A stretch of 64,000 nucleotides of DNA from an uncultured Enterobacteriaceae bacterium. Its GTDB lineage: Bacteria; Myxococcota_A; UBA796; SXON01. The position numbers and the translations under genes are program-made. Location of the stretch: the NCBI GenBank assembly GCA_964457335.1, contig CAYWGD010000002.1, positions 169,460-233,459 on the forward strand, in the 5' to 3' direction. Of the stretch, positions 45,233 to 55,410 are shown piece after piece. The notes beneath the pieces were generated by a model that did not search any database, had not been told where the DNA came from, and saw only the letters and a list, made by a program, of their open reading frames with translations. The stretch's first letter is position 1, and the number at the start of each line of letters is the position of its first letter.

Positions 45233-45450
45233 TCCTGCCCCCGCAGCGCGGCCAGCGCGTCCAGCAGCTCCCGCTCGTCGCGGAAGCGTGCGGTGGCGCC
45301 GTCCACGCGAGCGATCAACGCGCGCTCGCACGTCTCGCAACGGTCGAAGCACTCGACGGTCGACAGCGTCGCGCCGGTCGCCGCGACCCGGTCCGGGAGC
45401 GAGGGCGCGTGGCGGGACATGCCCGTCCTGCAGACCACGACCTCGGTCAA
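45229..45450 (-). CDS. DUF1450 (YuzB-like) small Cys-motif protein
   Basis: 73 aa. VVVC...VECFDRCETCERALIARVDG....ELLDAL resembles the YuzB-type pattern, from memory. ATGA overlap with the DUF423 gene. Confidence 0.55.
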   Translation of the reverse strand: MTEVVVCRTGMSRHAPSLPDRVAATGATLSTVECFDRCETCERALIARVDGATARFRDERELLDALAALRGQE

Positions 45451-45641
45451 GTCGCCTCCGGCTTACTCGCCATGCGAGTGCTCGACGGGTGGGCGAACCG
45501 GCAGATGTCTGGGAGCGCGGGCATGTTGCGGGTGTATCCCGTCGTCTCCGGCGGGCGAGGGGCCCTCGCCGCGCCACGGCGCCCGACGCCCCGGGAACCT
45601 CGACCTGAACGAGGTTCGGATGGGGCGGACAATTTCTGGCC

Positions 45642-45670
45642 TTGCGAGGGATGGTACCTGAACGTACGTT
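45642..45670 (+). promoter_or_regulatory. Candidate imuA promoter TTGCGA-N17-TACGTT, predicting a leaderless transcript
   Basis: The -10-like hexamer ends 6 nt before the imuA ATG (45677). There is no room for a Shine-Dalgarno sequence. The -10 hexamer lies inside the LexA-type palindrome. Confidence 0.4.
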
Positions 45671-45673
45671 CAG
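45658..45673. promoter_or_regulatory. LexA (SOS) box, perfect 16-bp palindrome CTGAACGTACGTTCAG
   Basis: Read directly from the sequence. It has a GAAC-N4-GTTC core and matches 15 of 17 positions of the M. xanthus LexA consensus CTRHAMRYBYGTTCAGS as I recall it. It lies 3 nt upstream of imuA. Confidence 0.72.
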
Positions 45674-45676
45674 ACC

Positions 45677-46495
45677 ATGCCCCAGCTGCCCCTCCGACTC
45701 GTCCCCCCCCTGGGGGAGGCCCTTCCGGGTACCCCGGCCGGGGCCGTCGTATCGGGTGCGACGCTCTCGGGACCTCGTCCGGCGGCGGGCCCGCGCGCCG
45801 CCACGCTCGATCGCCTGCGGGCCCTGGTGGGGTCTCGCGGGCGCGTGGGGATCCTCCCGCCGCCGCGAGAGCCCGACCCGGGGCTCCCGGCGCTCGACCC
45901 GGGCAGCATCTCCACCGACATCGCCGGGCTCGACGCGTGGCTGCACGGATGGCCGCGGCCCGGCCCCATCGAGATCGCGGGCCGGTCGGGGGCGGGTCGC
46001 CTCGCCCTCGTCGTCCCCCTGCTCGAGCGGCTCACACGAGAAGGGAGGACGGTGCTCCTCGTGGACCCGCTCCAGCAGCTGCACCCCCCGGGGCTGGGCC
46101 GGGTCGATCCCGCGCGGATCGTGCTCGTCCGCCCGCCGCCCGAACGCGCGGCCTGGACGGCGGAGCAGGTAGCGCGTTCGGGCGCCGTCGAAGCGATGGT
46201 GCTGCTCGATGCCCCGCCGCTGGGGCGGGCCGGCGTGCGTCTCGCGCGGGCCGCCGAAGCCGGCAACATGGCCGTCTTCGTGCTGGCCGACCGTCCCGAG
46301 GTGGATCTCCCCGCCATCCTCCGGCTCGAAGCCGACGGTTGGCAGGGCGACGAGCACGTGCGCGTGCACTGCACCCGCAGCCGGGACGGCCGCCGCGTGG
46401 GCACGCGGCTCGTGGCCCCGGGAGAGCGCCCGTCCGAGCCCGTCCGGATGAGCGAGGCGACAAAGGCCGTCCGGTACCGTGTGAGGTCCGCGTGA
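45677..46495 (+). CDS. imuA: ImuA (RecA/SulA-like component of the SOS mutagenesis cassette)
   Basis: 272 aa. ...GPIEIAGRSGAGRLALVVPLL... is a degenerate P-loop and ...AVEAMVLLDAPP... follows. Position upstream of imuB-dnaE2 and downstream of the LexA box. Confidence 0.8.
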   Translation: MPQLPLRLVPPLGEALPGTPAGAVVSGATLSGPRPAAGPRAATLDRLRALVGSRGRVGILPPPREPDPGLPALDPGSISTDIAGLDAWLHGWPRPGPIEIAGRSGAGRLALVVPLLERLTREGRTVLLVDPLQQLHPPGLGRVDPARIVLVRPPPERAAWTAEQVARSGAVEAMVLLDAPPLGRAGVRLARAAEAGNMAVFVLADRPEVDLPAILRLEADGWQGDEHVRVHCTRSRDGRRVGTRLVAPGERPSEPVRMSEATKAVRYRVRSA

Positions 46496-49400
46496 GCCAG
46501 CGCGGGTTCCTCGGCATCCACCTCCCCGGCTTCCGCCTCGAGCGGTGCGGCTGGGAGCCGCGCCTTCCGGCCGTCCTCGTCACGACCGAGCGCGGCGCGG
46601 AGCGCGTGCAGGCCGCGTCGCTGCCCGCGGGACGGGCCGGTGTCCGGGTGGGGATGACCCTGGCCGCCGCTCGGGCGCTCCTCCCGGAGATCCGGGTGGA
46701 GCGGCTCGATCCCACGGGAGAGCTCGCGGATCTCGAGGCCTTGTGCGCCGCCCTCGGCCGCTTCACCCCCGCGGCGCGCCCCGTCCCGCCGGATTGCCTC
46801 CTCCTGGACGTGGGGCCGGGCGCCATGGCGCCGATCCGCGCCTGCCTCGCCGAGCTGGGGCACGCCAGCCGCATGGTCCTGGCGGAGGAGGGGCGGACCG
46901 CGCTCGCGCTCGCGCGTCACGCGCGGCGGGACCGGGTCGTCCCGAAAGGCGGGATCGCGGCGGCGCTCGCCCCCCTGCCCGTCAGCGCGCTGGAGCTACC
47001 GGAGGAGGTCCTCCTGTCGCTCCGGGACGTCGGCATCCGGACGGTCGAGCAGCTGGCATCCCTCCCGACGTCCGCGCTGGTGGGCCGCTACGGCGCGGCC
47101 GTGGCGTCGGCGCACGCGCGGGCCCGCGGGGTCGCGGCGCCCTCGCCGCTCCCGTTGCCACCGCCACGGGAGGAGTCGGCGTTCCGGATCGACTTCCCCG
47201 ATCCGGTCGACGTCCTCGAGGCCGTGTTGTTCGTCCTCAACGGGCTGGTGCGGGATCTCGTGGGATCGGTGGACAGGGCGGGGCGCGCAGTCGTGCGGGT
47301 CCAGGTCCGGCTCCGCCTCGAGGAGGGCGAGCACGTCCTCCCGGTTCGGCTCGGCCAACCCACGCGCGGGCACGAGCGCCTGTTCCGCCTCCTGCGGGCC
47401 CGCCTGGAGCGGGTGCAGCTCGGGTCGCCAGTCCTGGGCGTGACGCTGGAGGTCCTCGAGGCCGTGGCCTTCACGCCGGTGCAGCCCGGGCTCCTTGATC
47501 GGGCCCAGGCCGCCGAGCCTCTGCCGGAGCTCTGCGCCCGACTGCAGGACGTGTTGGGGGCCGAGGCGGTCTGCGTGCCGGCGCCCGTCGACACCTGGCG
47601 GCCGGAAGCGTCCTGGGTCGCGGTTCCCTGGGGACAGGAGCCTCCGAAGCCGCCCCCCACGGCGGTCCTCCCGGATCCGGCGGCGCCCCACGAGCCGGCC
47701 GAGCCGGCCCGGCCGCGTCCGGCCGTCCTCCTCGCCGAGCCGACGGCCCTGCGGGTCGCGGCCGCGCCGTCGGGGCGGCCGCGTGCGTTGCTCCTGGAGC
47801 GGGAGTGGACGCCGCTCGATCCCGTCGAAGGGCCGGAGCGCATCAGCGGCGACTGGTGGCAGGACGGGGGGTGGGCTCGCGACTACTGGCGCGTGGGCCT
47901 GCCGGACGGGCGGCGCGCGTGGATCTACCGGCAGGCGTCGTCCGAGGAGGCGACGCCGCTCGCGCAGCGGTGGTTCCTGCACGGCTGGCTGGACGGCACC
48001 AGCCCCGTGGCGTCGACGCCCCCTCCCGATCCGCCCCCTCCCGATCCGCCCCCTCCCGATCCGCCCCCTCCCGACCCACCGCACCCCGATCCCTCCGTCG
48101 ACGGGACACAGCGACGGGAGCCCTCCTCACGCCGCGCTCCGCGCCCGACCGTCCGGTACGCCGAGCTCGTCTGCCGTTCGAACTACTCCTTCTGCGAGGG
48201 GGCCTCCTTCCCCGAGGAGCTCGTGGAGCGCGCGAAGGAGCTCGGGCTCTCGGCGCTCGCGCTCACCGACCGGGACGGCGTGTACGGCAACGTCCGCTTC
48301 CACCGCGCCGGGGGCGGGATCCCGCTCCTCCACGGCTCCCTGCTCACCCTCCGCGCCGGGGAGGAGCGCGTCCTGGACGGGGGGCCGGCCTGGTCGGCGG
48401 TCGCGCTCGTACAGGACCTCGAGGGGTGGGCCACGCTCTGCCGCCTCCTGACGCGGGCCCGCGGCGAAGCGGTGAAGGGGCGCGCGGAGCTGCCGCTGGA
48501 CGCGCTCCTCGCGCAGAACGAGGGCCTGATCCTCCTCGCGCGGGGGGACTGGCCCGCCGAGGACCTCGCCCGCCTCCACGAAGCCGCGGGCGACAGGCTC
48601 TACCGCGCGGTGAGCAGGCGCCTCGCCTGCGGAGAGGAAGCGCGGATCGACGGGCTCGTGCGGGGCACGGTGCCCTGCGTCGCCACCAACGACGTGTTGA
48701 TGCACGCCCCGGCCCGCGCCCGGCTGCAGGACGTCCTCGCGTGCATCCGCATGCAGACGACGCTCCCGGCGGCCGGGACCCGCCTCCAGCCCAACGCGGA
48801 GCGCGTCCTGAAGGAGCCGGAGCGCATGGCGCGGCTCTTCCGGCCCTGGCCCGCCCTGATCGCGCGCACGGTCGAGATCGCGGAGCGGTGCTCCTTCTCC
48901 CTGCGCGAGCTCACGTACCGCTACCCCAGCGAGGTCGTCCCCGACGGCTACACCGCGATGGAGTGGCTCCGCGAGCTCACACGCCGGGGGGTCCGGGAGC
49001 GGTACGGACCGCGGCCGCCCGAGGCGGTCAGCCGCCAGATCGAGTACGAGCTCGCGATCGTCGAGCGCCTGAACTTCCCGGCCTACTTCCTGACGGTGCA
49101 CGACCTCGTCCGCTTCGCCCGGGAGCGCGGGATCCTCTGCCAGGGGCGGGGGAGCGCGGCCAACTCCGCGGTCTGCTACGCGCTCGGCGTCACCGCGGTG
49201 GACCCCGCGCGGTCGAGCCTGCTCTTCGAGCGCTTCATCTCGGAGGAGCGCGGCGAGCCGCCCGACATCGACATCGACTTCGAGCACGAGCGGCGCGAGG
49301 AGGTGATCCAGTACGTCTACGAGAAGTACGGGCGGGAACGTGCGGCGATGGTCAACGAGGTCATCTGCTGGCGCGGGCGGATGGCGGTGCGGGACGTTGG

Positions 49401-51231
49401 CAAGGCGGTGGGGCTCGGCCTCGACCAGGTCGATCGCCTCGCGAAGGCGATGGACGGGTGGGGGGGCAAGCCCCCGTCCGAGGAGCGGCTGCGGGAGGCG
49501 GGGCTCGATCCCGCGGATCCCGCCCTGGCGCTGACGCAGTCCCTCGTCGGCGAGATCCAGGGCTTCCCCCGCCACACCTCCATCCACGTGGGAGGCTTCG
49601 TCATCTCCGATGGTCCCCTCGTCGACCGCGCCCCGATCGAGCCCGCCACCATGGAGGGCCGGACGGTCATCCAGTGGGACAAGAACGACGTCGACGATCT
49701 CGGCTTCGTGAAGGTCGACCTGCTCTCGCTCGGCATGCTCACGGCCATCCGCAAGTGCTTCACGTTCATGCGGACCTCCCACGGGGTCCACCACGACCTC
49801 GTGTCGGTCCCGCGGGAAGACCCGGGCGTGTACGACATGCTCTGCGAGGCCGACTCCACCGGCGTCTTCCAGGTGGAGAGCCGCGCCCAGCAGGGGATGC
49901 TCCCGCGCCTCCGCCCGCGCAGGTTCTACGACCTCGTCATCGAGACCGCGATCGTCCGACCCGGGCCGATCCAGGGGGGGATGGTGCACCCCTACCTCCG
50001 CCGGCGGAGCGGCCAGGAGGAGGTCACCTACGTGGACGAGCGGCTGCGGCCGATCCTCGAGCGCACGCTCGGCGTGCCGATCTTCCAGGAGCAGGTCATG
50101 GCGATGGCCGTGGCGGTCGGCGGGTTCACGCCCGGCGAGGCCGACGCGCTCCGGCGTGCGATGGGCGCGTGGCGCCGGCGGGGCGGGCTCGGCGAGCTCG
50201 GCGACAAGCTCATGCGCGGGATGCGCGCGAACGGGCTCCCGGACGAGTACGCGAACCAGATCTTCCTGCAGATCCAGGGCTTCGCGGAGTACGGCTTCCC
50301 GGAGTCGCACGCCGCCTCCTTCGCCCACCTCGTCTACGTCTCCGCGTGGCAGCGCTGCCACTACCCGGCGGCCTTCTGCGCCGCGCTGATCAACTCCCAG
50401 CCGATGGGCTTCTACGCCCCGCGCTCCCTGGTCGCCGACGCCCAGCGGCACGGGGTGGAGGTGCGGGAGGTCGACGTCACAGCCTCCGACTGGGACTGCA
50501 CCCTGGAGCCGGGCGAGGACGGTCCGGCGCTCCGGCTCGGCCTGCGTCTGGTGAAGGGCTTCCCGGAGGAGGTCGGTCACGCCATCGAGGCGGCGCGGCG
50601 CGGCGCGCCGTTCATCGATCTCCCCGATCTGGCCGTCCGCGCCGGGCTCGATCGCGCCCCCCTCCTGGCCCTCGCGCGCGCGGGAGCGCTCGATCCCCTG
50701 CTCCTCCCCGACCAGCGCGGCGCGCGCGGCGCCGCCTGGGCCGTGGAGGGCCTCTGGAGCGGTCTCTTCGCCCACGTGCTCCGGGGGGAGGGCAACGTGG
50801 CGCTGCCCGTCGCCTCGCCGCTCGACGCGGTACAGTCCGATTACCACGCGACCGGCCTCTCGGTGCGGGCGCACCCCGTGGGGCTCGTCCGCGCGCGGCT
50901 CGACAACGAGGGGGTGCTGCCGCTCTCCCGCCTCGCCGAGGTCCGCGCCGACACGCCGGTGAAGATCGCGGGGATGGTGTCCCACCGCCAGCGCCCGGGC
51001 ACCGCGTCCGGCGTGGTGTTCATGACGCTGGAGGACGAGACCGGCACGGTGAACGTCGTCATCTGGCCGAAGCTCTACGAGCGGCAGCGCCGGGTGATCC
51101 GCTCCGAGCCGTTGGTCACGATCACCGGGGTGCTCCAGCGCGAAGGGGAGGCCATCAGCGTGGTCGCGCGCCGCTTCGCGACACTGCGCGCCGCCCCGCC
51201 GGTGAGAGCTTCCAGCAGGGATTTCCGCTGA
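46492..51231 (+). CDS. dnaE2: Single ORF encoding ImuB (Y-family polymerase-like) fused in frame to DnaE2/ImuC (error-prone Pol III alpha)
   Basis: GTG 46492 sits in a GTGA overlap with imuA. The ImuB part is ...GIHLPGFRLER...RWFLHGWLD (to ~47994). A (PPPDP)4 linker follows. The DnaE2 part starts ~48151 with VRYAELVCRSNYSFCEGAS...PDIDIDFEHERREEVIQYV...GRGSAANS.... I read every codon from 47941 to 48240 and found no stop. This is the 3' 1,579 codons of track ORF 45409..51231. Confidence 0.85.
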   Translation: MSQRGFLGIHLPGFRLERCGWEPRLPAVLVTTERGAERVQAASLPAGRAGVRVGMTLAAARALLPEIRVERLDPTGELADLEALCAALGRFTPAARPVPPDCLLLDVGPGAMAPIRACLAELGHASRMVLAEEGRTALALARHARRDRVVPKGGIAAALAPLPVSALELPEEVLLSLRDVGIRTVEQLASLPTSALVGRYGAAVASAHARARGVAAPSPLPLPPPREESAFRIDFPDPVDVLEAVLFVLNGLVRDLVGSVDRAGRAVVRVQVRLRLEEGEHVLPVRLGQPTRGHERLFRLLRARLERVQLGSPVLGVTLEVLEAVAFTPVQPGLLDRAQAAEPLPELCARLQDVLGAEAVCVPAPVDTWRPEASWVAVPWGQEPPKPPPTAVLPDPAAPHEPAEPARPRPAVLLAEPTALRVAAAPSGRPRALLLEREWTPLDPVEGPERISGDWWQDGGWARDYWRVGLPDGRRAWIYRQASSEEATPLAQRWFLHGWLDGTSPVASTPPPDPPPPDPPPPDPPPPDPPHPDPSVDGTQRREPSSRRAPRPTVRYAELVCRSNYSFCEGASFPEELVERAKELGLSALALTDRDGVYGNVRFHRAGGGIPLLHGSLLTLRAGEERVLDGGPAWSAVALVQDLEGWATLCRLLTRARGEAVKGRAELPLDALLAQNEGLILLARGDWPAEDLARLHEAAGDRLYRAVSRRLACGEEARIDGLVRGTVPCVATNDVLMHAPARARLQDVLACIRMQTTLPAAGTRLQPNAERVLKEPERMARLFRPWPALIARTVEIAERCSFSLRELTYRYPSEVVPDGYTAMEWLRELTRRGVRERYGPRPPEAVSRQIEYELAIVERLNFPAYFLTVHDLVRFARERGILCQGRGSAANSAVCYALGVTAVDPARSSLLFERFISEERGEPPDIDIDFEHERREEVIQYVYEKYGRERAAMVNEVICWRGRMAVRDVGKAVGLGLDQVDRLAKAMDGWGGKPPSEERLREAGLDPADPALALTQSLVGEIQGFPRHTSIHVGGFVISDGPLVDRAPIEPATMEGRTVIQWDKNDVDDLGFVKVDLLSLGMLTAIRKCFTFMRTSHGVHHDLVSVPREDPGVYDMLCEADSTGVFQVESRAQQGMLPRLRPRRFYDLVIETAIVRPGPIQGGMVHPYLRRRSGQEEVTYVDERLRPILERTLGVPIFQEQVMAMAVAVGGFTPGEADALRRAMGAWRRRGGLGELGDKLMRGMRANGLPDEYANQIFLQIQGFAEYGFPESHAASFAHLVYVSAWQRCHYPAAFCAALINSQPMGFYAPRSLVADAQRHGVEVREVDVTASDWDCTLEPGEDGPALRLGLRLVKGFPEEVGHAIEAARRGAPFIDLPDLAVRAGLDRAPLLALARAGALDPLLLPDQRGARGAAWAVEGLWSGLFAHVLRGEGNVALPVASPLDAVQSDYHATGLSVRAHPVGLVRARLDNEGVLPLSRLAEVRADTPVKIAGMVSHRQRPGTASGVVFMTLEDETGTVNVVIWPKLYERQRRVIRSEPLVTITGVLQREGEAISVVARRFATLRAAPPVRASSRDFR
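48019..48078 (+). repeat. 15-bp in-frame tandem repeat (ccccctcccgatccg, three perfect units plus a variant)
   Basis: Read directly from the sequence. It encodes PPPDP repeats at the ImuB/DnaE2 junction. Confidence 0.88.
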
Positions 51232-51304
51232 TGTTCCGACAGGGTGGCGCATGGCCGCCTCCGCCTCGTCCGTGTAGGATCGCTCGGTCCTGCACCGAGG
51301 CCCC

Positions 51305-52501
51305 ATGCGCGCGCTCCCTCTCGCCTTCCTCCTCTGGGCCTGCGGCCCCGCCACCCCGACGGTGGGGGACGAAGAGGCGCCCGACACCAATACCGACACG
51401 CCGGGCGACACCGACACGGCGGACACCGACACGGACACCGCCGCCGACACGGACACGGCCCCTGGCGAGACGCTCCAGCTGGGAGATCCCTGCGAGCCGG
51501 GGGTCAGCGACTGCGGGCCCGACGCGGCCTGCTGCACCGAGTGCTGCACCTCCGACGCGGAGCCCGTGTGTACCGAGCTCGACGAGCTCGGCGGGTGCCC
51601 GCTGCCCGACCTCTGGATCGACGAGGGGCGCATGGCCGGGTCGATCGACATCCAGGACGTGCCCTTCGAGGAGGGCGACTGCGCCATCTACGAGGGCTGC
51701 GTGGACGGCCCGGGGATGCGCCGGCTCCTCAAGTTCGCCACCACGACGCCCAACACGGGGACCGCCGACCTCTACTTCGGGGACCCGGACGACAACGACA
51801 TCTTCGAGTACTCCGAGTGCCACGAGCACGACCACTTCACCGGCTACGCGACCTACGAGCTCCTCGCGGCCGACGGATCGCTCGCCGCGTCGGGCCACAA
51901 GCAGGCGTTCTGCCTCATGGACTACGAGGAGTGGGACAACGGCGGTCGGGCCCGCTACGACTGCAGCTTCCAGGGGATCGGCGTCGGCTGGGCCGACACC
52001 TACGACGCGTACCTGGATTGCCAGTGGGTCGACATCACGGACGTTGCGCCCGGCAGCTACACGCTCCAGGTCACGCTCAACCCCGACCGGATCATCCCGG
52101 AGCTCTCGTACGACAACAACCGGATGCAGGTGCCCGTCGAGGTGCTCGATCCGGTCGACGAGCCCCCGGTCACCGACGACTGCCTCACCTCCGGCTACGG
52201 CGAGCACCGCAACTGCGGGTGGGAGATCGCCGGCACCTTCCACTGCGAGCCAGGCGAGGAGGTCACCCTCGGCTGCGAGAACGCCTGCTCGGGCCGGTGC
52301 TGGAGCGACACCACGATGCGCATCTGCGAGGGCGACAACGTCGCCTGCCGGGGCGCCGATGCGCTGGTCAACAACGACGACGGGTGCGGCGGCACGTGCT
52401 CGGCCGACACGTTCACCTGCCCCACGAGCGGCGTGGTCACCGCGCTCGTGTCGGCGTGGGCCTCCTACGACAACGCCTCGTGCACCATCGCGGAGCTCTG
52501 A
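51305..52501 (+). CDS. Lysyl-oxidase-like copper amine oxidase lipoprotein
   Basis: Lipobox FLLWAC with a (DT)n linker. The LOX catalytic signatures are collinear: FEYSECHEHDHF (Cu His-x-His-x-His), GHKQAFCLMDYE (LTQ Lys) and WADTYDAYLDCQWVDITDVAPGSYTLQVTLNP (LTQ Tyr). A Cys-rich C-terminal domain follows. Confidence 0.85.
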   Translation: MRALPLAFLLWACGPATPTVGDEEAPDTNTDTPGDTDTADTDTDTAADTDTAPGETLQLGDPCEPGVSDCGPDAACCTECCTSDAEPVCTELDELGGCPLPDLWIDEGRMAGSIDIQDVPFEEGDCAIYEGCVDGPGMRRLLKFATTTPNTGTADLYFGDPDDNDIFEYSECHEHDHFTGYATYELLAADGSLAASGHKQAFCLMDYEEWDNGGRARYDCSFQGIGVGWADTYDAYLDCQWVDITDVAPGSYTLQVTLNPDRIIPELSYDNNRMQVPVEVLDPVDEPPVTDDCLTSGYGEHRNCGWEIAGTFHCEPGEEVTLGCENACSGRCWSDTTMRICEGDNVACRGADALVNNDDGCGGTCSADTFTCPTSGVVTALVSAWASYDNASCTIAEL

Positions 52502-52609
52502 GAGCCGGAGCGGCCGCCCCGCGGCGGGGTTGGTAAGCGATCCCCGATCGGGCGCCGAGCCGGCGCGCCGCACCCCGTCCGCGCGTACGGGCGCGGGTTA
52601 GCAGCCTGC

Positions 52610-54220
52610 ATGTTCGTCGTGCTGTCGCTCTTGGCGTGCTCGGGGGGAGGCGCGGACCCCGAGGCGTCTTCGTCGTCGCCGTCGTCGCCGCCCGTCGCGC
52701 CCCCCGAGGACGGGCCGCTCGCGGAGCCGCGGATGGGCGTCGCCGAGGTGTCCACGCCCGCCGAGGTCGTGCGCGCGACCGAGGTGCAGGACCGCACCGC
52801 GCCGCCGCGGCTGGACGTGTGGTTCGACCCCGACGCGACCACCTTCGAGGCGCTCGGCCGCAAGCTCGAGTCCTGGGGGTTCTCCATCCTCGACGGCGAC
52901 GGCGAGAGCTGGCGGGTCGGCGCGCCGCCCGGGGCCGAGTGGCCCGCGCGGCTCCTGCCCCTCCCCGAGGTCGCCTCCGTCGGCGAGGCGGTCGACATCG
53001 TGACCCTGGAGACCGGCGCGCTCCGCGAAGGCAGCGAGCGCTACGGCCAGCTCGTGCACACCTGGTCCTGGCGCGAGGGCGGCCCGGTGGCCTCCGTCAC
53101 GGGGGGCCCCCCGCCTGCCGAGCCGCTGCTCCCGCATGCCCTCCCGCCCTCGGTCGTCCGCTGCCTCGCGCCCGTGCGCACCGCCATGAAGACGGGCGTG
53201 TCCGTCGGGGTCGGCTGGGAGCGGGGGCTCCTCGAGGATCCGCCCACCTGGGTCGCCGTGCTCGAGGACTACGGCGCGTGCAAGGCCTCCGGGTGGCTCG
53301 CGCTCCGGCCGGACGCCGCGGTGGACACCCTCACCATCGGCGGTCGGCCCGTCGCGCAGCTCGACCCGACCGTGATCCACGGCGCCGCGGTCGACTACCT
53401 GCGCGTGCTCCGCCCCTACGACGACCCCGCGGCCCTCGCGGCGTGGGACATCCTCCGGCAGGCCCCCACCGAGACGCTCGCAGCCGCGGTCGAGGCCGTC
53501 GCCCCGGGGCCGTTCCAGGAGCGCCTATGGGAGGAGCTGGACCAGCGCGACCCCGACGCCGCTGTGATCCTGGCCGAGAGGTCGAGCTCGCCCGTGCTCC
53601 GGGCGGGCGTCACCGCCGAGGTGGAGGCGCTGCGCACGGCCGCGCTCGTGGAGCCGGACGCCCCTTCGGAGGCCGTCTACGCGGCGCTGACGGTGTGGCG
53701 CCCCGGGCCCGCCGATCCCCCGGGCATCCTCGACCGCCTCCGCACCCACCCGTCGCCCCGGGTGCGGGAGCGCGCCTGGGAGCTCACCATCGACGCGACC
53801 TCCGCCGCCTGCTCGGCCCGCGCGAAGACCGTCGAGACGGCCGACGTGAGCCTCGCCTCGGCGATCTACCGGGAATGCCCGCAGCAGCCCGTCCGCGTCG
53901 CGGCGTTCAACCACCTCCTGAAGCTCGACCGTGTCGCCGCCGCGGCGGTCGTCAACGTCGTCCTCGAGGAGCCCGAGACCACCCGAACGGGCGTCCTCGC
54001 CGCGCGCCACGCCGCCGCGCTCGAGCGCTACGACCTGCTCGAGGCCCTGGTCCGGCGCACCTCCGTGTCCCGTGACGTGCGCCGCGTGGGGCTCGACCTC
54101 CTGATGAAGGCCGAGCGCCCCGAGGCAGCGGAGCTCGTCGAGCAGCACGGCGCCTACGTCGGGTACCGCCCGGCGAGCGCCCCACCGCTGGTCCCGCCCA
54201 CGGCGGACGGCGTGCAATGA
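52610..54220 (+). CDS. Lipoprotein with HEAT/ARM-like helical repeats, function unknown
   Basis: MFVVLSLLAC lipobox, a Ser/Pro linker, and a C-terminal half with repeated ...PSPRVRERAW.../...PVRVAAFNHLL... helices. ATGA overlap with the downstream oxidoreductase gene. Confidence 0.65.
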   Translation: MFVVLSLLACSGGGADPEASSSSPSSPPVAPPEDGPLAEPRMGVAEVSTPAEVVRATEVQDRTAPPRLDVWFDPDATTFEALGRKLESWGFSILDGDGESWRVGAPPGAEWPARLLPLPEVASVGEAVDIVTLETGALREGSERYGQLVHTWSWREGGPVASVTGGPPPAEPLLPHALPPSVVRCLAPVRTAMKTGVSVGVGWERGLLEDPPTWVAVLEDYGACKASGWLALRPDAAVDTLTIGGRPVAQLDPTVIHGAAVDYLRVLRPYDDPAALAAWDILRQAPTETLAAAVEAVAPGPFQERLWEELDQRDPDAAVILAERSSSPVLRAGVTAEVEALRTAALVEPDAPSEAVYAALTVWRPGPADPPGILDRLRTHPSPRVRERAWELTIDATSAACSARAKTVETADVSLASAIYRECPQQPVRVAAFNHLLKLDRVAAAAVVNVVLEEPETTRTGVLAARHAAALERYDLLEALVRRTSVSRDVRRVGLDLLMKAERPEAAELVEQHGAYVGYRPASAPPLVPPTADGVQ

Positions 54221-55410
54221 CGGTCCCGTACTGGCTCGACGGCGCCGCGCCGCTCGCGGGGCCGCTCGAGGGCGACGTGACCGCGGACGTGCTCGTCATC
54301 GGTGCGGGGCTCTGCGGCGCGTCGGCCGCCCTGGCGCTCGCGCGCGCCGGGGTGGACACCGTGTGGGTCGACCGGGGCGCGGTAGCGCACGGGGCCTCCG
54401 GGCGGAACGCGGGCTTCCTCCTCCAGGGGACCGCGGAGCGCTACGTCCGGGCCGTCGCGATCCACGGCCGGGAGCGCGCGCGCCGCGTCCACGCGCTCTC
54501 GCGCGCCAACCACCTCGCCATGGCGGAGGTCGTCGACGAGCTCGGCCTCGACTGCGGCTACCAGCGACGCGGCTCCCTGCAGCTCGCCGGCAGCGCCGAG
54601 GAGGAGGAGGACCTCCTCGCGTCGGCCACGCTGCTGCGCGAGGACGGCTTCCCTGCCGACGAGCGCGTGGCGGACGCGCTCGGTCCCGCGCTCCGGGACG
54701 CCGGCTTCCGGCTCGGTGTGCACCTCCCGGACGACGGCGAGCTACAACCCGCGACGTTCGTCCAGGGGGTCGCACGCGCGGCCATGGCGCTCGGCGTGCG
54801 GCTCCACGAGCACGCGCCCGTCCTCGCGCTCGACGCCCCGGCCCCCGGAGACGTGCGCGCGCGGACCCCCCGGGGCGAGGTGCGCGCGCAGATCGCGCTG
54901 GTGTGCACGAACGCCGCGGCCGGCGAGCTCCTGCCGGCCCTGGCGGGCAGCATCGACCCGGTGCGGGGCCAGATGCTCGCCACGGCGCCCGCGCCGCCGG
55001 TGTTCGACTGCCCGATCTACGCCGATCACGGCTTCGACTACTGGCGGCAGGACGAGCACGGGCGCATCGCGCTCGGGGGCTGGCGCAACCTCGACCCGGA
55101 CGGTGAAGTCGGCACCGACGAGGTGCTCCATCCGGTCATCCAGGCGCGCATGACCGAGTTCCTGGGGCGCTTCGCGGCGCTGCGGGACGTGCCCGTGACG
55201 CACCGCTGGAGCGGGACGATGGGTTTTTCGCGCGACGGACTCCCGCTCGTCGGGGCCGTCCCCGGGCTCCCGGGCGCGCTCGTGGCCGCCGGCTTCACCG
55301 GGCACGGCTTCGGCTTCGCCTGGGTCTGCGGCCGCGCGCTGGCCGAGATCGTCCTCGAGGGGCGCAGCGAGGTCGCCGAGCTCTTCCCAGCGCGTCGCTT
55401 CCGCGCCTGA
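54217..55410 (+). CDS. FAD-dependent oxidoreductase (DAO / sarcosine-oxidase-like family)
   Basis: Dinucleotide fold ADVLVIGAGLCGASAALALARAG. The C-terminal ...GFTGHGFGFA... is typical of the DAO family. Confidence 0.88.
   Translation: MTVPYWLDGAAPLAGPLEGDVTADVLVIGAGLCGASAALALARAGVDTVWVDRGAVAHGASGRNAGFLLQGTAERYVRAVAIHGRERARRVHALSRANHLAMAEVVDELGLDCGYQRRGSLQLAGSAEEEEDLLASATLLREDGFPADERVADALGPALRDAGFRLGVHLPDDGELQPATFVQGVARAAMALGVRLHEHAPVLALDAPAPGDVRARTPRGEVRAQIALVCTNAAAGELLPALAGSIDPVRGQMLATAPAPPVFDCPIYADHGFDYWRQDEHGRIALGGWRNLDPDGEVGTDEVLHPVIQARMTEFLGRFAALRDVPVTHRWSGTMGFSRDGLPLVGAVPGLPGALVAAGFTGHGFGFAWVCGRALAEIVLEGRSEVAELFPARRFRA

Follow-up and report, generated by a model that had tools for sequence, protein, structure and literature searches.

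The ImuA-ImuB-DnaE2 mutasome is a driver of damage-induced mutation and of drug resistance in many bacteria, including Mycobacterium tuberculosis. In its canonical form, described from Caulobacter, Pseudomonas, Myxococcus xanthus and M. tuberculosis (the last with ImuA′), DnaE2 (ImuC), which carries catalytic aspartates, is combined with an ImuB that resembles Y-family polymerases but is inactive and that has a clamp motif and an ImuB-C region, and a LexA-box-like operator lies upstream (PMC10421592; PMC12926913). Counterparts of ImuB and DnaE2 and probable counterparts of ImuA and the operator, with the genes in the same order imuA-imuB-dnaE2, can be recognized in a stretch of 64,000 nucleotides (nt) from the metagenome-assembled genome of an uncultured bacterium (assembly GCA_964457335.1, contig CAYWGD010000002.1, positions 169,460 to 233,459 of the forward strand; hereafter the window, with position 1 as its first letter). 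Unlike the canonical system, however, this locus encodes ImuB and DnaE2 as one polypeptide, in which a linker that is predicted to be disordered and that spans 21-88 amino acids (aa) among homologues lies between ImuB-C and the PHP domain of DnaE2. This ImuB-DnaE2 fusion is a real, previously unreported variant of a known system and is useful to the mutasome field.

In Pol V of Escherichia coli it is the Y-family subunit that catalyzes synthesis, without any C-family polymerase, and we know of no fusion of Pol V subunits. Nevertheless, Pol V (UmuD′2C-RecA-ATP) is similar to the mutasome in being a damage-induced, clamp-dependent, multi-part mutagenic enzyme whose components include a Y-family protein and one that resembles RecA (PMC6511836). 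Parallels are also found among the mutasome modules themselves. For example, a 2026 survey by the Venclovas group of more than 3000 complete genomes distinguished 11 module types, split ImuB variants included (PMC12926913). The split variants, which consist of an inactive PolY, a standalone ImuB-C and DnaE2X or DnaE2B (Timinskas & Venclovas 2019; NAR 2026; PMC6511836, PMC12926913), have the same domain repertoire as the protein studied here but distribute it differently, and hence the module tolerates both fission and fusion at domain boundaries. In one respect these variants are the opposite of our locus, since ImuB is divided into two proteins there, whereas here it is the boundary between ImuB-C and DnaE2 that is closed. 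Another analogy is provided by PolC with its embedded DnaQ and by some DnaE1-DnaQ fusions, wherein a PHP-binding partner is covalently joined to a C-family polymerase (PMC12926913). There, however, a proofreading exonuclease is attached to a replicative enzyme, whereas here a clamp-binding adaptor is attached to an error-prone one. A natural ImuB-DnaE2 fusion is not described in the literature that we searched, including the polymerase surveys (PMC6511836, PMC12926913) and papers on myxobacteria (PMC5285347, PMC11002988), where the fusions mentioned are either engineered or fluorescent and where, apart from these, only the proposal is found that PolY and ImuB-C fused to give rise to ImuB itself. 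The 2026 survey covered complete genomes, and the fused members reported below are all derived from metagenomes.

A preliminary description of this DNA, made from the sequence alone, proposed that imuB and dnaE2 form a single unbroken reading frame from 46492 to 51231. Translation bears this out, yielding 1579 codons and one terminal stop. The frame comprises three parts, namely an ImuB homologue (aa 1-501), a linker (aa 502-553) and DnaE2 (aa 554-1579), and the junction reads ...QRWFLHGWLD / GTSPVASTPPPDPPPPDPPPPDPPPPDPPHPDPSVDGTQRREPSSRRAPRPT / VRYAELVCRSNYSFCEGAS..., exactly as it had been written in that description. Also correct were the statements that the N-terminal valine of DnaE2 is encoded by GTC, a codon that does not serve as a start and that we locate at 48151-48153, and that GTG at 48007 is the sole in-frame ATG, GTG or TTG in the linker, as a codon scan confirmed. 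The start at 46492 matches the N-termini of 27 homologues, and the frame stays open upstream as far as 45409. An identical protein has already been recorded at NCBI, on a contig of 282 kb (P0001). Very long overlapping open reading frames (ORFs) of 1186-1940 aa are also present in other frames or on the other strand (45409-51231 and 47805-52601 on the plus strand, 48127-51687 on the minus strand). Such long ORFs are a by-product of a guanine-plus-cytosine (GC) content of 75%, and ORF length in the window alone is no evidence of coding.

The ImuB part aligns with standalone proteins of 497-549 aa at 38-44% identity and 98-100% coverage, several of which are named 'protein ImuB' by JGI. A HMMER scan with aa 1-800 of the query against 1.84 billion representatives at 50% identity found about 130 comparable proteins of approximately 500 aa. 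The Pfam IMS model matches aa 1-501 at a sub-threshold score (E 5e-4, 20.4 bits versus a cut-off of 23.2 bits). Standalone ImuB proteins stop 0-3 residues past an ending of the LHGW(W/L/F)D type (LHGWWD(R) or LHGLFA). The window protein reads on into the linker exactly where these proteins terminate, and thus the ImuB stop is missing: the frame does not end after ImuB-C but runs on into DnaE2. Within ImuB-C, the homologues show little or no variation in the motifs GPER, RDYW, DGRRAW and WxLHGW. At the other end of the module, the N-terminus FLGIHLPGFRLERCG includes the motif HLPxFRLERCG, and no member of the clade has an Asp at the positions that are catalytic in Y-family polymerases. Inspection against the general Y-family motif indicates that His, Tyr or Phe and Pro replace these residues. 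With the missing Asp as its hallmark, the ImuB part is most likely a catalytically dead Y-family-like module. The pattern [QG]-x-[GS]-L-[FLWY]-[DE] is kept across the 28 fused homologues, where it is represented in the window by QPGLLD, a site that separates the polymerase-like part from ImuB-C. This sequence is of the same type and occupies the same relative position as 352-QLPLWG-357, the essential clamp-binding motif of M. tuberculosis ImuB (PMC10421592), and is predicted to bind the clamp. Covalent tethering of a clamp-binding adaptor to the polymerase, as the fused frame would provide, is consistent with the conservation of this motif. A search of the PDB revealed no solved structure related to the ImuB half.

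For the DnaE2 part, the NCBIfam model NF004225 ('error-prone DNA polymerase') gives 1344 bits versus a cut-off of 939, with aa 553-1579 covering profile positions 3-1047 of 1047, whereas the model for replicative DnaE, NF004226, remains below its cut-off (634 versus 1002 bits). Pfam matches to PHP, DNA_pol3_alpha, finger, HHH_6 and OB are found in this half, whose closest solved structures are DnaE alpha subunits. The palm motifs PDIDxDFE (aa 924-931) and VKVD (aa 1073-1076), which contain the catalytic triad of DnaE, are invariant in all 28 homologues. Near the junction, the N-terminal sequence YAELxxxSxxSFxEGAS is conserved among the fused homologues, and the position of the former DnaE2 Met1 is variable, being occupied by V, P, A, L, T, Q or G with no conserved Met. 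In the window, DnaE2 has neither a gene nor a start of its own, as its first codon is GTC and its frame is continuous with imuB.

Natural fusion of ImuB to DnaE2, the central claim of the preliminary description, is supported by these domain matches and by 27 further clusters with the same architecture. These were found by searching 5.8 billion proteins clustered at 90% identity, which gave 28 fused clusters including P0001; the other 27 are 55-86% identical to it and 1528-1726 aa in length. Together the clusters hold about 94 member sequences from four sources (NCBI, ENA, JGI and Logan assemblies). Among the relatives, one has the taxon label Myxococcota, and others have the generic 'Proteobacteria'. 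The nearest relative for which DNA was available has 79% protein identity, and synonymous sites are likely saturated at this distance. A comparison with close relatives had been suggested as a check on the fusion, and in these relatives the fusion is kept, with linkers of varied length that are always in frame.

In a neighbor-joining tree built from the DnaE2 part, all 29 of 29 fused proteins constitute one clade. Two long proteins among the best 150 matches of the HMMER scan match both sides of the junction: P0069, which belongs to this clade, and P0134, which is placed among standalone DnaE2 proteins. Because the tree groups the fused proteins together and leaves P0134 outside, these data point to one ancient fusion and one apparently independent, unreplicated fusion (L085). 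P0134 is a singleton encoded by a fused ORF of 1547 aa at 4001-8644 of L085 (JGI 3300078543, a 27 kb contig) that has lower GC content. It is 37% identical to the window protein, and its junction differs (…VWFEPGCWRVPRAIAG…AAYAELVCATNFSF). A SRAP gene and imuA lie upstream of the fused ORF. As it is known from a single contig, P0134 appears to be either an independent fusion or an error.

No close unfused relative emerged from the protein searches, in which the next best standalone ImuB was 44% identical and standalone DnaE2 about 50% identical. One candidate for a split standalone ImuB, P0070 (503 aa, 59%), was rejected as a fragment, because its contig is only 1.9 kb long and the protein breaks off within the linker. 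Other candidate fusions were likewise discarded. In L007, L010, L011, L012, L017, L053 and L080, imuB and dnaE2 are neighboring genes that a stop or a change of frame keeps separate. In L006, L020, L021, L026, L027, L037, L044, L051 and L079, the frame upstream of dnaE2 lacks the ImuB-C motif, and these long frames are driven by GC content. Adjoining but separate genes occur, among the matches listed, in Verrucomicrobiota, Acidobacteriota, Binatia, Eremiobacterota and another metagenome-assembled genome (MAG) of Myxococcota. One of the genomes that carry the fused gene, L002 (CALQBK020000018.1), is a MAG titled 'Bifidobacterium breve'. The fused gene in this genome has codon-position GC of about 0.81/0.55/0.90, and the label is almost certainly wrong.

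The linker stands where separate genes would have the imuB stop, a spacer and the dnaE2 start. Among the 28 homologues its identity is 20%, compared to 56-79% in the flanking domains, and 23 distinct lengths are observed (21-88 aa, measured from HGW to YAEL), all of which are in frame. The pooled composition is dominated by P (21%), A (16%), G (12%) and R (11%). In the window, the linker contains five copies of a PPPDP unit, and at the corresponding place the linker of P0003 has a run of (APSPT/A)x5. This suggests that linkers lengthen when 15-nt units are duplicated in tandem and in frame. At the DNA level, the linkers of L002 and L003 have zero in-frame start codons, and those of several other relatives include an in-frame GTG, TTG or ATG. 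Codon-position GC is 0.84/0.75/0.77 in the linker versus 0.8/0.55/0.95 in its flanks, but we rejected this measure as a sign of translation because it mainly reflects Pro codons. Linkers of 12 of the 28 fused homologues (P0009, P0010 and P0015-P0024) share a short motif, [GKN]-V-[VL]-x-F-P-x-G, which also occurs twice in L004 (6211-6474). Its core V-[VL]-x-F-P is absent from the linker in the window (47995-48150) and from 16 of the 28 homologues. The motif is loosely similar to MutL-type clamp motifs (Q-x-h-L-x-P), and it may be a short docking motif.

We modeled aa 400-849 with AlphaFold2, using 21 homologues. ImuB-C residues 412-500 are predicted to form eight beta strands, with predicted local distance difference test (pLDDT) values for blocks of residues mostly between 72 and 92. 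The linker has pLDDT values of about 43-57 and no secondary structure, and it is followed by a well-folded PHP domain. According to the 2026 survey, AlphaFold models of the mutasome of M. tuberculosis show the largest contact of ImuB with DnaE2 between the ImuB-C beta-barrel and PHP (PMC12926913). The same two domains are joined C- to N-terminus in the fused proteins, by linkers as short as approximately 21 residues. Because the domains joined are those of the modeled interface (PMC12926913), we infer that the fused protein might constitute a single-chain mutasome core.

Taken together, these findings make it highly probable that the locus represents a genuine, old fusion which is characteristic of a single clade of uncultured bacteria with high GC content and in which the imuB stop and the dnaE2 start have been lost. 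Several points qualify or weigh against this conclusion. The open frame alone is weak evidence, because GC content in the region is approximately 75%, the +1 and +2 frames are likewise stop-free across the linker so that all three are open, and the chance that 52 codons of such composition are free of stops is about 50% by our own arithmetic. As the open frame by itself is not beyond chance, the case rests on comparison with related sequences. The GTG at 48007 could permit some free DnaE2 to be made by internal initiation. The imuA-like gene upstream matches its model NF033429 with E 9.6e-21 and 74.5 bits, which is below the cut-off of 150 bits. The predicted template modeling score (pTM) of the AlphaFold2 model is 0.59, a value at which the relative placement of ImuB-C and PHP is not established, and we rejected it as support for docking in cis since it cannot decide the matter. 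Moreover, all fused members are metagenome-assembled, with no cultured representative, and the evidence is at the level of sequence. The continuous frame is present in at least four species-representative genomes (L001-L004).

The composition of the region, the three open frames and the tandem repeat within the linker might also be taken to indicate that the continuous frame is an artefact, caused either by an error in sequencing or assembly, perhaps within the 15-nt repeat, or by a spacer that is open by chance in GC-rich DNA. However, the ImuB stop is absent precisely where standalone ImuB proteins end, and the DnaE2 start is absent as well. Both losses are kept in relatives, which places them beyond chance. 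In addition, 27 other clusters and independent assemblies share the architecture with different linkers, mostly without the 15-nt repeat, and errors in the copy number of a 15-nt unit would preserve the frame anyway. The independent assemblies and the variable in-frame linkers rule out a local sequencing error, and we consider an artefact of any kind to be extremely improbable. A more serious alternative, although still an unlikely one, is that the fused ORF is real but that separate DnaE2 is also or mainly made by internal initiation in or near the linker, at GTG 48007, with the fusion being a by-product and free DnaE2 still forming part of the working complex. The window linker does have this one in-frame GTG, and linkers of several relatives have GTG, TTG or ATG, but the positions of such codons are not conserved, and in L002 and L003 no such codon separates ImuB-C from the conserved DnaE2 N-terminus. 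By inspection, the sequence GGCTGGACGGCACCAGCCCC that precedes GTG 48007 has no clear Shine-Dalgarno match, and a promoter and terminator scan was blank inside the ORF, albeit with low power at such GC content. Furthermore, in the absence of a stop codon, each ribosome that translates imuB must continue into dnaE2. Less probable again is that the fusion serves as a precursor in which a protease, either a housekeeping enzyme or one induced by damage, cuts the disordered linker, so that separate ImuB and DnaE2 are released as from a polyprotein. There is precedent in Pol V for activating proteolysis, wherein UmuD is cut to UmuD′, and the linker is long, disordered and exposed in the AlphaFold2 model. 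Yet it has no conserved cleavage motif, being Pro-rich and only about 20% identical over its 21-88 aa, and the sole recurrent linker motif, V-[VL]-x-F-P, is missing from the window and most homologues. Since imuB has no stop codon, free ImuB is impossible without proteolysis. The only routes to free DnaE2 would be internal initiation and cleavage, and no conserved feature supports either of them.

The upstream gene and site that accompany the fused gene are given in Table 1. The 16-nt palindrome CTGAACGTACGTTCAG has its sole match within the 64 kb window at this site, compared to 0.05 expected. It is identical and equally placed in L081, and the variants CTGAGCATATGTTCAC and CTGAACATACGGTCAG, with one to two differences, are found immediately next to the start of imuA in L082 and L083. 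The GAAC-N4-GTTC core of the palindrome resembles Gram-positive and myxobacterial LexA sites, and the palindrome is a probable LexA operator of the operon. A gene in the same position as the imuA-like gene, coding for 206-273 aa with faint or clear RecA_N matches, is found in L081-L083 and L085, where it overlaps the fused gene or is separated from it by a gap of no more than 9 nt. As part of the fusion reading that we hold to be highly probable, imuA and imuB::dnaE2 would be translationally coupled through their GTGA overlap. The ImuA-like protein of the window has GRSGAGRL at the Walker A position. Because this sequence lacks Lys, the protein is probably not an ATPase, whereas ImuA of M. xanthus is one (PMC11002988).

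Directly downstream of the fused gene, on the plus strand, are two ORFs that lack a Pfam match (51244-52536, 430 aa; 52610-54220, 536 aa), followed by a DAO-family oxidoreductase at 54217-55410. Genes of 535-590 aa that are likewise uncharacterized, and a DAO gene, occupy the corresponding downstream place in L081-L083. Synteny common to L081 and L083 includes two Band_7 genes upstream as well as these genes and the DAO oxidoreductase downstream.

Table 1. Coordinates of the fused imuB::dnaE2 gene, its parts and the associated upstream features, numbered from the first letter of the window.
Feature	Position	Strand	Basis and remarks
imuB::dnaE2 single ORF	46492..51231	+	1579 aa + stop; translation, the only stop is terminal
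ImuB module (aa 1-501)	46492..47994	+	Degenerate Y-family polymerase-like region, then ImuB C-terminal region
Candidate beta-clamp-binding motif QPGLLD (aa 331-336)	47482..47499	+	Column pattern conserved
ImuB-C region (aa 412-501), all-beta, terminal RWFLHGWLD	47725..47994	+	AlphaFold2 and conserved motifs
Linker (aa 502-553, 52 aa), Pro-rich, predicted disordered	47995..48150	+	AlphaFold2 and homologue comparison
15-nt tandem repeat, encodes (PPPDP)n	48017..48092	+	5.1 copies, 90% matches; in-frame expansion
DnaE2 module (aa 554-1579 + stop): PHP, palm/fingers, HhH, OB	48151..51231	+	NF004225, Pfam; first codon GTC
imuA-like gene, 272 aa	45677..46495	+	NCBIfam NF033429 ImuA_translesion; TGA overlaps GTG of the fused gene (GTGA)
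Perfect 16-nt palindrome, GAAC-N4-GTTC core	45658..45673	.	3 nt before imuA ATG; probable LexA operator

If the fusion arose as we propose, the former end of imuB and the spacer that followed it would have become a disordered linker rich in Pro, Ala, Gly and Arg, leaving an operon in which imuA and then imuB::dnaE2 are positioned behind a LexA-box-like palindrome. DNA damage would derepress this operon, probably through LexA, and the products would be ImuA, which might bind as a separate subunit, and a single-chain ImuB-DnaE2 of approximately 170 kDa. The dead Y-family-like part of this chain could then recruit the protein to the beta clamp via Q-x-G-L-L/F-D, and ImuB-C, as the last fold before the linker, might dock in cis on PHP, the first fold after it. 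Error-prone synthesis would be carried out by the DnaE2 active site, with its catalytic aspartates intact. Such a tether would fix the ratio of the partners at 1:1, provide each with a high local concentration of the other and remove an assembly step.

Interacting partners have often become fused during evolution, and a fusion here is no conceptual surprise. However, the mutasome lacks a solved structure, contacts between its subunits have so far been based on two-hybrid data and AlphaFold models, and no cryo-electron microscopy study of a mutasome with ImuB was found in the literature that we searched. A fusion that has been kept despite extensive divergence is an independent form of 'Rosetta-stone' evidence that ImuB and DnaE2 work together in a 1:1 ratio, that in the active complex the beta domain at the C-terminus of ImuB lies beside the PHP domain at the N-terminus of DnaE2, as has been modeled (PMC12926913), and that ImuB and DnaE2 need not be exchanged during function. 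As naturally stabilized single chains, the fused proteins also offer a construct with which to pursue expression, biochemical work and the solution of structures. In annotation, these proteins of 1500-1700 aa carry merely the source name 'error-prone DNA polymerase', which conceals their ImuB half. Finally, it is possible, although we regard this as rather doubtful, that the approximately 170 kDa fusion is the sole functional form, with neither ImuB nor DnaE2 occurring free, and thus an obligate single-chain clamp-tethered polymerase to which V-[VL]-x-F-P adds a second partner site in some subclades. If this is true, then the mutasome would work with a fixed 1:1 complement of ImuB and DnaE2 and with a contact between ImuB-C and PHP that never needs to dissociate.

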